From positions 2,048,001 to 2,112,000 of the forward strand of contig CAVZZO010000001.1 of the NCBI GenBank assembly GCA_963779755.1: a stretch of 64,000 bases of DNA, in the 5' to 3' direction. This document shows, one piece after another, positions 11,807 to 40,542 of the stretch (within the stretch, counting starts at the first letter, position 1; each line of letters opens with the position of its first letter). A program made the position numbers and the translations under genes. The notes under the pieces were generated by a model. The model made no database searches and was not told the origin of the DNA. It saw nothing but the letters and a program-made list of their open reading frames with translations. The DNA comes from an uncultured Gemmatimonadales bacterium (GTDB lineage Bacteria > Gemmatimonadota > Gemmatimonadetes > Gemmatimonadales > GWC2-71-9).

Positions 11807-11890
11807 CACCGCAGAGACGCAGAGGACGCGGAGAAAGCGAGAATACCGGCGAGGGCCTCCATTCTCCGCGCGCTCAGCGCCTCTGGGGTT
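11807..11890. repeat. Empty inverted-repeat element with 9-nt-period arms (same end family as the GxxExxY cassette)
   Basis: Left CACCGCAGAGACGCAGAGGACGCGGAGAA; right TTCTCCGCGCGCTCAGCGCCTCTGGGGTT; arms are imperfect reverse complements (23/29 by eye). Confidence 0.75.
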
Positions 11891-38382: not shown

Positions 38383-38414
38383 AAAAGCCCCGTTCATTCG
38401 AGCGGGGCTTTTTT
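38383..38414 (+). terminator. Intrinsic (possibly bidirectional) terminator after rpsA
   Basis: AAAAGCCCCGTTC-ATTC-GAGCGGGGCTTTTTT. Confidence 0.85.
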
Positions 38415-38871
38415 ACCGCGAAGACGCGAAGGGCGCGAAGGGTCCGAATACCTTGTCTTTTGTAGGCCGGTGTTGATTTACAATTCGCCGGATCCCTCTC
38501 CCAAGGACCGGGACGTTGAAATTCATCAGCAGCGCCAGAGGCAGGCGGAGCAGTCGGAGGTAGGTTAGCACCTGGGCCAGGTGGATAGCAGTTACCTCTT
38601 CAACCGCTTTGACCTCCACCAGCAGCACCCCTTCAATCAGGAAGTCAGCCCGGTAACTGCAAGGAAGCCGGACGCCTTTGTAGAAGACCGGCAGTGCCAC
38701 CTCGCGCTGGTGTTCCAGGCGCCGCAGGGAAAGTTCGTGACCCAGGCATGTCGCATACGCGCTTTCGAGCAGGCCCGGGCCGAGGCTCCGGTGAACTTCG
38801 ATCGCCGCGCCGATCACCTGATGGGACAGACGGTCCGCAAGGTCGGACTTTTGTACTAGGTCGATTGCCAT
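38413..38871 (-). CDS. GxxExxY protein (PD-(D/E)XK nuclease-like), 152 aa
   Basis: VIGAAIEVHRSLGPGLLESAY, RADFLIE..LVEVKAV, HLAQVLTYL, LLMNF; hidden at the 3' end of the long antisense ORF 38413..40560. Confidence 0.92.
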   Translation of the reverse strand: MAIDLVQKSDLADRLSHQVIGAAIEVHRSLGPGLLESAYATCLGHELSLRRLEHQREVALPVFYKGVRLPCSYRADFLIEGVLLVEVKAVEEVTAIHLAQVLTYLRLLRLPLALLMNFNVPVLGRGIRRIVNQHRPTKDKVFGPFAPFASSR

Positions 38872-38965
38872 GCCCCCACAGTACACATCCCAACGCCTTG
38901 AAACGTACCAAAAACTCACGATCCTCATCCTTTCGCGCTCTTCGCGAGCTTCGCGTCTTCGCGGT
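38415..38965. mobile_element. Putative mobile cassette: GxxExxY gene within periodic terminal inverted repeats
   Basis: Ends ACCGCGAAGACGCGAAG.. and ..CTTCGCGTCTTCGCGGT are perfect 17-bp inverted repeats, extended by further CGCGAAG units of about 9-nt period; interior is visibly more AT-rich than the flanks. Confidence 0.6.
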
Positions 38966-38989
38966 TCCGCCCCGGCTATATTCCGGCCC

Positions 38990-40542
38990 ATGCCCGATCC
39001 CCGAAACCTCCTCGACGATCTCCACCGCCGGCAGGCCGAGGCCGAGCAGGGCGGGGGGAGCAGCGCATCGCGCAACAGCACAAACGCGGCAAGCTCACCG
39101 CCCGCGAGCGGCTCGATCTCCTCCTCGACGAGGGCAGCTTCGTCGAGTACGACCGCTTCGTAGTCCATCGGGCCACCTCGTTCGGCCTGGACCAGGAGAA
39201 ATACCCGGGCGACGGCGTCGTCACCGGCTACGGGCGCATCGACGGACGCCTGGTGTACGTCTTCTCCCAGGATTTTACCGTCTTCGGCGGCTCGCTCTCG
39301 GAAACCTTCGCCGAGAAGATCTGCAAGATCATGGACCTCGCGGTGCGCAACGGCGCGCCGGTGATCGGCCTCAACGATTCGGGCGGCGCCCGCATCCAGG
39401 AGGGCGTCGCCTCCCTCGGCGGGTACGCCGACATCTTCCTGCGCAACACCCTGGCGTCCGGCGTGGTCCCCCAGATCTCCGCCATCCTGGGCCCCTGCGC
39501 CGGCGGCGCCGTCTACAGCCCCGCCATCACCGACTTCGTGTTCATGGTCCGCAACCTGAGCTACATGTTCGTCACCGGGCCCAACGTGGTGAAGACGGTG
39601 ACGCACGAGGAGGTGAGCTTCGAGGAGCTGGGCGGCGCCGACACCCACGCCGGTACCTCGGGCATCGCCCACTTCGCCTGCGACAGCGAGCCGGAATGTC
39701 TCGCCGCCATCCGGGAACTGTTCAGCTACCTCCCCGGCAACAACGTGGACGATCCGCCCTTGCGCCCCAGCGATGATCCTCCCGGGCGGCGCGACGAGTC
39801 GCTGCTGGGGGTCATCCCCGAGGCGCCGTCCCGCCCCTACGACATGCACGAGGTCATCCGGGCCGTGGTGGACGAGGGCACCTTCTTCGAGGTGCATCGC
39901 GAGTTCGCCGGGAATCTCCTGACCGGATTCGCCCGGTTGGGCGGCCGCCCGGTGGGGCTCATCGCCAATCAGCCCGCCGTGCTGGCCGGAGTGCTGGACA
40001 TCAACGCGTCGGTCAAGGGGGCGCGGTTCATCCGTTTCTGTGATGCTTTCAATATCCCGCTCGTCACCTTTGTAGACGTCCCCGGGTTCCTGCCCGGGGT
40101 GGCCCAGGAGCACGGCGGCATCATCCGGCACGGGGCCAAGCTGCTCTACGCCTACTGCGAAGCCACCGTGCCCAAGCTGACGGTGATCACCCGCAAGGCC
40201 TATGGCGGAGCCTATGACGTGATGAGCTCCAAGCACATTCGGGGCGACCTCAACCTGGCCTGGCCCTCGGCGGAGGTGGCGGTCATGGGGCCCAAGGGCG
40301 CGGTCGAAATTCTGTTCCGCAAGGAGATCGCCGAGTCGGCCGACCCGGCCGAAGCCGCCGCCCGGTTTACCGACGACTACACCAGGCGGTTCGCGAATCC
40401 CTATAGCGCGGCGGAGCGGGGCTTCGTGGATGACGTCATCGACCCGCGCGACACCCGGCCCCGGCTGATCGACGCGCTGGCCACCCTGGCCACCAAGCGC
40501 GACCGGAATCCGCCGAAGAAGCATGGGTGTATACCGCTGTAG
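38990..40542 (+). CDS. pccB: Acyl-CoA (propionyl/methylmalonyl-CoA) carboxylase carboxyltransferase subunit; apparent 1-bp deletion in the G6 run at 39053-39058
   Basis: [13 protein letters not shown] continues in another frame as [73 protein letters not shown]. Confidence 0.9.

Follow-up and report, generated by a model that had tools for sequence, protein, structure and literature searches.

Our analysis revealed that the GxxExxY gene in the window (the whole stretch of 64,000 nucleotides analysed here) lies between inverted arms built of heptamer units, that homologues in several phyla are bracketed in the same way, and that the arm variant tracks the protein. The cassette is likely a slow-moving selfish unit, and the arms are the likely target of its protein. 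The features in the window are as follows:

38415..38965, no strand: the whole cassette, arm to arm, 551 bp
38415..38448, + strand: arm at the 3' end of the gene, ACC followed by three CGCGAAG units (38417, 38425, 38434) and a degenerate fourth
38413..38871, - strand: GxxExxY gene P0001, 152 aa, a predicted PD-(D/E)XK nuclease
38878..38883, - strand: putative leaderless -10 box TACTGT, 6 nt before the ATG, a match of pattern only
38931..38965, - strand: arm at the 5' end of the gene, ACC followed by three CGCGAAG units and one CGCGAAA
38383..38414, no strand: terminator of host rpsA, a hairpin (38383-38412) with an A-tract before and a T-tract after it, abutting the arm
38977..38982, + strand: putative -10 box TATATT of host pccB, 7 nt before its ATG at 38990 and 11 nt outside the arm
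11808..11889, no strand: two inward arms without a gene, in an intergenic spacer; they belong to the arm family of the cassette (CGCAGAG sub-variant), and one unit is damaged

The original prediction described a 551-bp unit after the rpsA terminator that is more AT-rich than its neighbours. The coordinates agree, and the GC content is 0.593 in the cassette versus 0.684–0.686 in two large contigs of the genome, with a GC3 of 0.69 in the cassette gene versus 0.89 in rpsA and 0.91 in pccB. The perfect 17-bp inverted ends were also confirmed, and identity is 85% over 34 nt (38415-38448 and 38932-38965). The arms do contain three to four CGCGAAG units each, but their period, originally given as about 9 nt, is not purely 9, since the units are spaced 8, then 9 (and again 9) nt apart. 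In homologues, the outer end is conserved about 3 nt beyond the edge of the cassette (consensus TTCACC).

As predicted, the 152-aa ORF reads through the repeat to the boundary: P0001 (38871 to 38413) crosses one arm, ends in PFAPFASSR and stops at the outer edge of that arm, with a TAA made up of the terminal arm base and two T of the rpsA terminator tract. Two database proteins that are 79–80% identical to P0001 (P0003 and P0004) share the arm-derived C-terminal tail. With a tract on either side of its hairpin, the rpsA terminator probably also ends the antisense transcript of the cassette. Of the leaderless promoter proposed for the gene, the TACTGT pattern is present, but a sigma-70 scan found no promoter at the cassette; a hexamer similar to TATATT precedes pccB in relatives too. 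The left and right arms can pair with each other, with the gene inside the resulting long stem (z -3.4). On its own, an arm folds like shuffled sequence (z 0.09 and -1.55), and it pairs only with the opposite arm. Folding of single units into mini-hairpins was rejected as a general feature, since the commonest unit, CACAGAG, is not self-complementary. There was no Rfam match at E<=1.

P0001 is a full-model member of TIGR04256 and PF13366 (GxxExxY / PDDEXK_3), well above the curated cut-offs (PF13366, E 1e-38, 132.7 bits versus 22; TIGR04256, E 1.2e-39, 135.3 versus 35). The earlier statement that no transposase is visible was upheld, as profile searches at E<=0.1 returned no other family, including DDE, DEDD, Tyr, Ser or HUH/Y1 transposases and GIY-YIG. 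Residues H27, E36, Y39, D76, E86, K88, Y104 and N117 are invariant among 117 aligned proteins. The predicted catalytic set of P0001 comprises E36, D76, E86, K88, Q100 and Y104, in which the helix acid, D and ExK of the PD-(D/E)XK superfamily are complete (E36, D76, E86, K88). Among arm-flanked proteins, D76 is kept in 130/130 and E86, K88 and Q100 in 129/130. The predicted structure (mean pLDDT 86.9) is confident over residues 1–133, and its structural neighbours are mostly PD-(D/E)XK enzymes: 4ic1 (Z 7.3, rmsd 4.0, 108 aligned residues), 3s1s BpuSI (Z 7.2) and 4r5q Cas4 (Z 6.0). This fold match is modest, as the best Z of 7.3 is below 8, the tool's level for a clear match, and no neighbour is clearly ahead. 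Our search found no solved structure with a sequence relationship to P0001. The Cas4/RecB-like nucleases have the D...ExK triad and the QxxxY motif, a motif associated with the RecB/Cas4 group, in common with P0001, and probably the core fold too. In contrast to Cas4, no Fe-S cysteines occur among the invariant columns, and with Z below 8 no specific relative is singled out.

The GxxExxY family is very large (7,912 of 8,000 scored candidates match). Long homologues are mostly head-to-tail fusions of two domains (69/91). In domain 1 of these fusions, E86 is retained in 67 and K88 in 68, whereas domain 2 has mostly lost both. The dead domain, nearly always the second, retains H27, G31, G33, Y39, E46 and N117. 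Because the fusions carry a dead second domain, the single-domain protein may act as a dimer in which one working active site suffices, that is, as a nicking enzyme. This two-domain clade with one catalytically dead domain comprises P0005, P0006 and P0122–P0188. Database entries in which GxxExxY is “fused” to housekeeping enzymes (P0189, P0193, P0194, P0197 and P0205) seem to arise where a cassette directly adjoins the end of a host gene and translation continues through the arm. The family is described as being of unknown function, with multiple transfers and mixed clades, and the entry available for GxxExxY/PDDEXK_3 mentions no repeats or cassette (PMC3424549). In the main texts of the open literature searched, we found no paper that gives GxxExxY a function or links it to repeats; for P0001 as a member of this family, the arms add a candidate substrate.

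The original prediction proposed that the flanks of homologues be searched for inverted arrays, and homologues do generally carry them. Loci comprised 80 from genomes and 80 from metagenomes, plus the best family matches and a hand-picked set, with counts made on loci with full flanks. Both inward arms were present in 45/70 genome loci, 42/60 metagenome loci, 14/30 best family matches and 4/16 hand-picked loci, versus 0/56, 0/20, 0/24 and 0/12 of the respective distal control windows (0/76 for the genome and metagenome sets together). A motif-free inverted-repeat score gave the same picture (58/74 loci versus 0/57 controls). The hosts include Pseudomonadota, Planctomycetota, Bacteroidota, Acidobacteriota and Chloroflexota. 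Both arms were called in 137/214 loci, with a median cassette length of 517 bp and the consensus end TTCACC.

The proposed co-phylogeny of protein and repeat is also supported, as the left and right arms covary and the arm variant tracks the protein. Base 2 of the unit is equal in the left and right arms of 131/137 cassettes (shuffled mean 69, maximum 87) and base 5 in 134/137 (shuffled mean 89, maximum 104). On the protein tree, base 5 changes 13 times versus 24.8 in shuffles, and it associates with residues 16–17 in the first helix: residue 16 is not Thr in 25/27 cases where base 5 is A, versus 17/97 where base 5 is G. In sisters of the same genus (G076/G137), both arms change from CGCGAAG to CGCGGAG and residues 16–17 from SS to TD. 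A Bacteroidota lineage with A-type arms carries the S-H pair of the window protein in 6/6 copies, which as one lineage count as one event. An independent-pairs test of residue and base had only 2 pairs on well-supported branches, a number that cannot reach significance. The protein likely recognises the arms, and residues 16–17 of helix 1 are candidate readers. One genome (G142, L221–L233) has 15 GxxExxY matches with many arm variants, and the arms within a cassette agree wherever both were called.

Arms are also dispersed in the genome of the window. Arm-like matches number 191 genome-wide versus 15–19 in three shuffles; in the window alone, the two-unit pattern has 3 matches, a number reached by 30/100 shuffles and thus not above chance. 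The arms of the genome fall into two families, A (CGCRRAG) and B (CRCAGAT). With a stricter pattern, family A comprises 68 arms, of which 59 lie outside crude ORF calls even though 89% of the genome is called coding, and 58 begin with the cassette's own CGCGAAG; gene-less pairs thus share the variant of the resident gene. These arms form 22 inward pairs, namely the cassette and 21 gene-less pairs of 63–256 bp. The interiors of the 22 pairs, compared where they were at least 20 nt long, are almost all unrelated, with only two short matches; the idea that the gene-less pairs are mobilised copies of one mini-element therefore fails. The gene-less copy originally placed at 11807-11890 does consist of two genuine inward arms, whose units are of the CGCAGAG sub-variant and not the cassette's CGCGAAG. 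It folds with z -3.3 and -3.9, and no contig among those matched to it bridges it. The P0001 protein type is present in a single copy. Family B (CGCAGAT) has its own GxxExxY genes, 42–46% identical to P0001, one of which is bracketed at a span of 551 bp, equal to the window cassette. Elsewhere in the genome, BIME-like tandem arrays consist of family-B arm pairs duplicated together with the spacer outside the arms (G000:C1:708200-728400 and other sites), and at G000:C3:1488000-1507500 a cluster of family-B GxxExxY copies and fragments is tandemly amplified, 95–97% alike over 0.6–1.9 kb.

Inverted arms are not confined to GxxExxY genes in this genome: 7/8 genes of the four-helix-bundle family (TIGR02436) and 2/2 DUF559 genes (L365–L374) have their own, and several of these genes are preceded by a TAnnnT hexamer just before the ATG. 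To our knowledge, the four-helix-bundle family has no nuclease activity. The inverted-arm architecture thus does not need the GxxExxY nuclease, which may not be the mover.

The presence of arms goes with the gene across genomes. In the host family, 79/201 genomes have the gene, and it is carried by 35/38 genomes with at least five arm matches versus 44/163 of the others. Matches were counted for one arm pattern, in the 44 carriers with fewer than five as elsewhere, and the three arm-rich genomes without the gene are 69–80% complete. Within genera, carriers had more arms in 14 comparisons, fewer in 2 and equal numbers in 4, where the carrier's own two arms inflate small differences. GxxExxY copies per genome range from 0 to 15 and are patchy within genera. 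A collection of 50,697 phage records contained no cassette gene; the cassette was found in 6 plasmid records and 1 viral contig, and is otherwise chromosomal. In three of the plasmid records (Bacteroides, Sphingomonas and Bernardetia), arm-bracketed genes lie just past a host stop codon within conserved runs, for example fabD-fabG. The 201 loci with flanks fall into 139 neighbourhood clusters, a number that short flanks may over-split.

The history of the rpsA-pccB site indicates long residence. The cassette was found in 0/29 of the relatives first sampled (rpsA lay inside the examined locus in 20 of them) and in 8/29 of a second sample ranked by pccB similarity, with six more among other loci; an early reading that relatives lack the cassette at this site was overturned by the wider sample. 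Altogether, 15 family genomes have the cassette at rpsA-pccB, 12 antisense and 3 sense. The antisense orientation noted originally is therefore true of the window but not general, with 3/15 sense here and 16/16 sense at another site. Occupancy clusters on the host tree (4 state changes versus 7.9 shuffled), with the position of the cassette unchanged in same-genus pairs. The proteins of the site are 72–92% identical in same-genus pairs and 43–63% across genera; their monophyly was neither shown nor rejected (p-AU 0.27 and 0.28). The cassette gene is under purifying selection (pN ~0.05 at saturated pS). Since the 15 occupied family genomes group together on the host tree and genera pass the cassette on by descent, the window copy is most likely an old resident and not a fresh insertion. 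Vertical conservation of the locus, which the original prediction listed as evidence against itself, is thus found in part. In G076/G137, the cassette lies in opposite orientation between colinear flanks that are 88–93% identical. No filled and empty junction pair close enough to define the ends was found among the relatives examined, and a metagenome scan for the pccB-side flank gave 0 matches. Relatives without the cassette (L022, L028, L029, L004, L005 and L400) have unrelated 7–8-nt periodic repeats or hairpins in the rpsA-pccB spacer.

Evidence of exchange comes from a Flavobacteriales genus, in a 10–15-bp spacer between two conserved genes (75/131 genomes matched, 68 distinct two-flank alleles). 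The alleles comprise 14 empty, 16 GxxExxY, 1 arms only, 35 other hairpins and 2 other genes, and a few more look arms-only by eye. Unrelated hairpins thus alternate with GxxExxY cassettes here as they do at rpsA-pccB. The state of the spacer is random on the host tree (27 changes versus 28.5 shuffled), and the proteins of the 16 cassettes belong to four lineages, with three variants of the arm. Cassette and flanking genes diverge about equally within a lineage, where the cassette is under purifying selection; between lineages, the cassette pN is 0.38 versus a flank pN of 0.014 (one pair). The flanks are alike and the cassettes far apart between lineages, and cassettes have therefore been replaced. 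Recent hopping is not supported, as same-lineage divergence is similar to that of the flanks. In a check for homing or co-conversion, same-lineage pairs were 1–4 points more alike in their flanks than different-lineage pairs, with no gradient, in genomes too distant for this comparison.

The lack of a target-site duplication, stated originally for the window, extends to 100 cassettes: none exceeded shuffles at offsets 2–6 and lengths 2–8, with one of 30 cells marginal (3 versus a shuffle maximum of 2). In genus g76, two sites have the cassette in both species, and at a third G186 lacks the gene and has a shorter spacer, at a divergence too great to place the ends. In L330 (G317), a duplication takes in the left arm and the final ten bases of the host gene, and additional arms are nested in lineage-IV cassettes; both hint at repair-type or repeated insertion. 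In the picture that emerges, the cassette inserts rarely, stays for long and is now and then lost, swapped or inverted, and the spacers it favours lie immediately behind stop codons and terminators.

The analogy with RAYT/REP drawn in the original prediction is apt, as both have a bracketed gene and dispersed repeats. The cassette resembles REPtrons/TIRtrons and, most closely, the Ssn/NTS system, and its enzyme family excludes membership of both. As far as the available texts describe them, REPtrons (RAYT/REP/REPIN) and TIRtrons (TIRYT) consist of one gene bracketed by dispersed repeats, often in inverted pairs or clusters, at low copy number, mostly vertical and rare on plasmids (PMC5581495, PMC3733652). 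The cassette likewise belongs to a dispersed intergenic repeat family, is mostly inherited vertically and is rare on plasmids. In contrast, RAYT and TIRYT are HUH tyrosine transposases with known joining chemistry, whereas the cassette has no HUH/Y1 match, and its arms are periodic 7-mers without a GTAG/CGTC tag. The Ssn nucleases are encoded by a small GIY-YIG gene between inverted NTS/SRM repeats that are also dispersed, each homologue with its own repeat variant, and NTS-ssnA-NTS has been likened to a domesticated mobile element, according to the available text (Chenal et al. 2025, PMC11893778). There, SsnA is described as cutting single-stranded DNA a few bases outside the repeat and as modulating transformation. 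The cassette shares with this system a single-domain nuclease gene in inverted, dispersed repeats whose variant follows the protein. However, Ssn is GIY-YIG (cd10448), whereas the cassette protein is a predicted PD-(D/E)XK enzyme with no GIY-YIG match; each NTS/SRM is its own hairpin, whereas an arm consists of tandem 7-mers that alone fold like shuffles; and cleavage is demonstrated for Ssn and only predicted for GxxExxY. This closest published analogue was absent from the original prediction.

Together, these results lead us to a mechanism that we hold to be evenly balanced between right and wrong: an arm-bracketed GxxExxY cassette moved rarely via its nuclease and host repair. The predicted PD-(D/E)XK protein would recognise its own arm variant and likely nick near the outer end of the arm; from time to time, repair by the host would then insert the cassette, replace it or turn it around, and the same process would seed gene-less arm pairs. 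By analogy with Ssn and Cas4, the substrate may be single-stranded or formed by paired arms. That the protein itself causes the movement is plausible but unproven. No strand-transfer chemistry is known for a lone domain of the PD-(D/E)XK fold, which counts against this explanation, as does the lack of defined junctions and of signs of recent hopping. Further points against it are the arms around four-helix-bundle and DUF559 genes, the long residence at the window's site, the two-pair basis of the residue-base link, the unrelated gene-less interiors, the 44 carriers with fewer than five arm matches and the modest fold match. A bolder version, which we offer tentatively and think rather improbable, is a transposase-free mobile class based on a 130-residue PD-(D/E)XK domain, with a 7-mer code read via two helix-1 residues, a half-active nicking dimer, and host repair that inserts, swaps and inverts the cassette. 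It would belong, with the four-helix-bundle and DUF559 cassettes, to a wider super-class that generates much of the unexplained 7–9-nt intergenic repeat content of bacteria and would be a source of very small re-programmable nucleases.

Since four-helix-bundle and DUF559 genes also have arms and hairpins alternate with cassettes, a shared outside mover is a live rival, although we consider it unlikely. Separate trans-acting machinery of the host or of an element would build and move the arm pairs, and the GxxExxY, four-helix-bundle and DUF559 genes would be cargo or mere arm-binding specificity factors, with the movement of the DNA independent of the nuclease site. Three unrelated small-gene families with inverted arms in this genome, the alternation of GxxExxY-type arms with unrelated 7-nt hairpins at the 10–15-bp spacer and at rpsA-pccB, and the different interiors of all gene-less pairs speak for it. 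However, the type of arm goes with the family and lineage of the protein, 129–130/130 proteins have retained the catalytic residues, and 35/38 arm-rich genomes have the gene. Alternatively, as a further live rival that we consider about as unlikely, the protein may serve a domesticated Ssn- or RAYT-like host function, cutting arm-bearing single-stranded DNA to modulate recombination or foreign DNA uptake, or processing RNA or DNA at repeats. The cassette would then be mostly vertical, with allele differences arising from loss and homologous exchange. Such a role is consistent with vertical residence under purifying selection, with the virtual confinement to chromosomes (0/50,697 phage records, 6 plasmid records, 1 viral contig), with the effect of SsnA on transformation (PMC11893778) and with RAYTs being mainly vertical, as stated in the text available (PMC5581495). 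It is at odds with 0–15 patchily distributed copies per genome, with four lineages at one spacer whose occupancy is random on the host tree, and with 139 neighbourhoods among 201 loci.

A conventional cut-and-paste insertion sequence with MITE derivatives is largely refuted and thus very improbable. The terminal inverted repeats around one ORF and the short gene-less derivatives recall such elements, but there is no target duplication in 100 cassettes and no transposase match, the genome has one copy of the protein type, and the interiors of the 22 family-A pairs lack the sharing expected of MITEs. It is equally hard to credit that the arms are regulatory, as operators or a silencing RNA stem, and that the dispersed copies are neutral recombination debris. 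The long stem that the arms can form around the gene and the ORF crossing one arm would fit this role, which nevertheless leaves unaccounted for the dozens of gene-less pairs with a matching variant and the fact that they are found together with the gene. Nuclease-driven movement with host repair remains the preferred reading. The Rpn/YhgA-like nucleases, which have the PD-(D/E)XK fold, warn against assuming mobility. They were once labelled transposases, tied to RecA-independent DNA transfer, and later recast as defence toxins, according to the texts accessible (PMC5350276, PMC10400941); they form a different Pfam family (PF04754), and the available descriptions mention no bracketing arms.

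This study also provides insights into an orphan protein family, as the arms give GxxExxY a concrete candidate substrate, a specificity prediction (base 5 with residues 16–17) and a catalytic control. If the protein also moves the cassette, dispersed bacterial repeat families would have a third enzyme chemistry besides HUH and GIY-YIG, and a class of intergenic hairpins and a class of false gene fusions in annotated genomes would be accounted for. The intergenic heptamer repeats known from Xanthomonas and Nostoc, short tandem units near stop and start codons, are described in the available text as G-rich and quadruplex-forming, with no enzyme assigned (PMC4692102). They resemble the four-helix-bundle arms of this genome and not the CRCRRAG arms.

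The host gene pccB shows a one-base frame break (window positions 38990-39253): the distance from its ATG at 38990 to the matched downstream part is 263 nt, versus 264 in the closest relatives. The break is likely placed in the G-run near 39050-39060 and is either an assembly error or a true frameshift.
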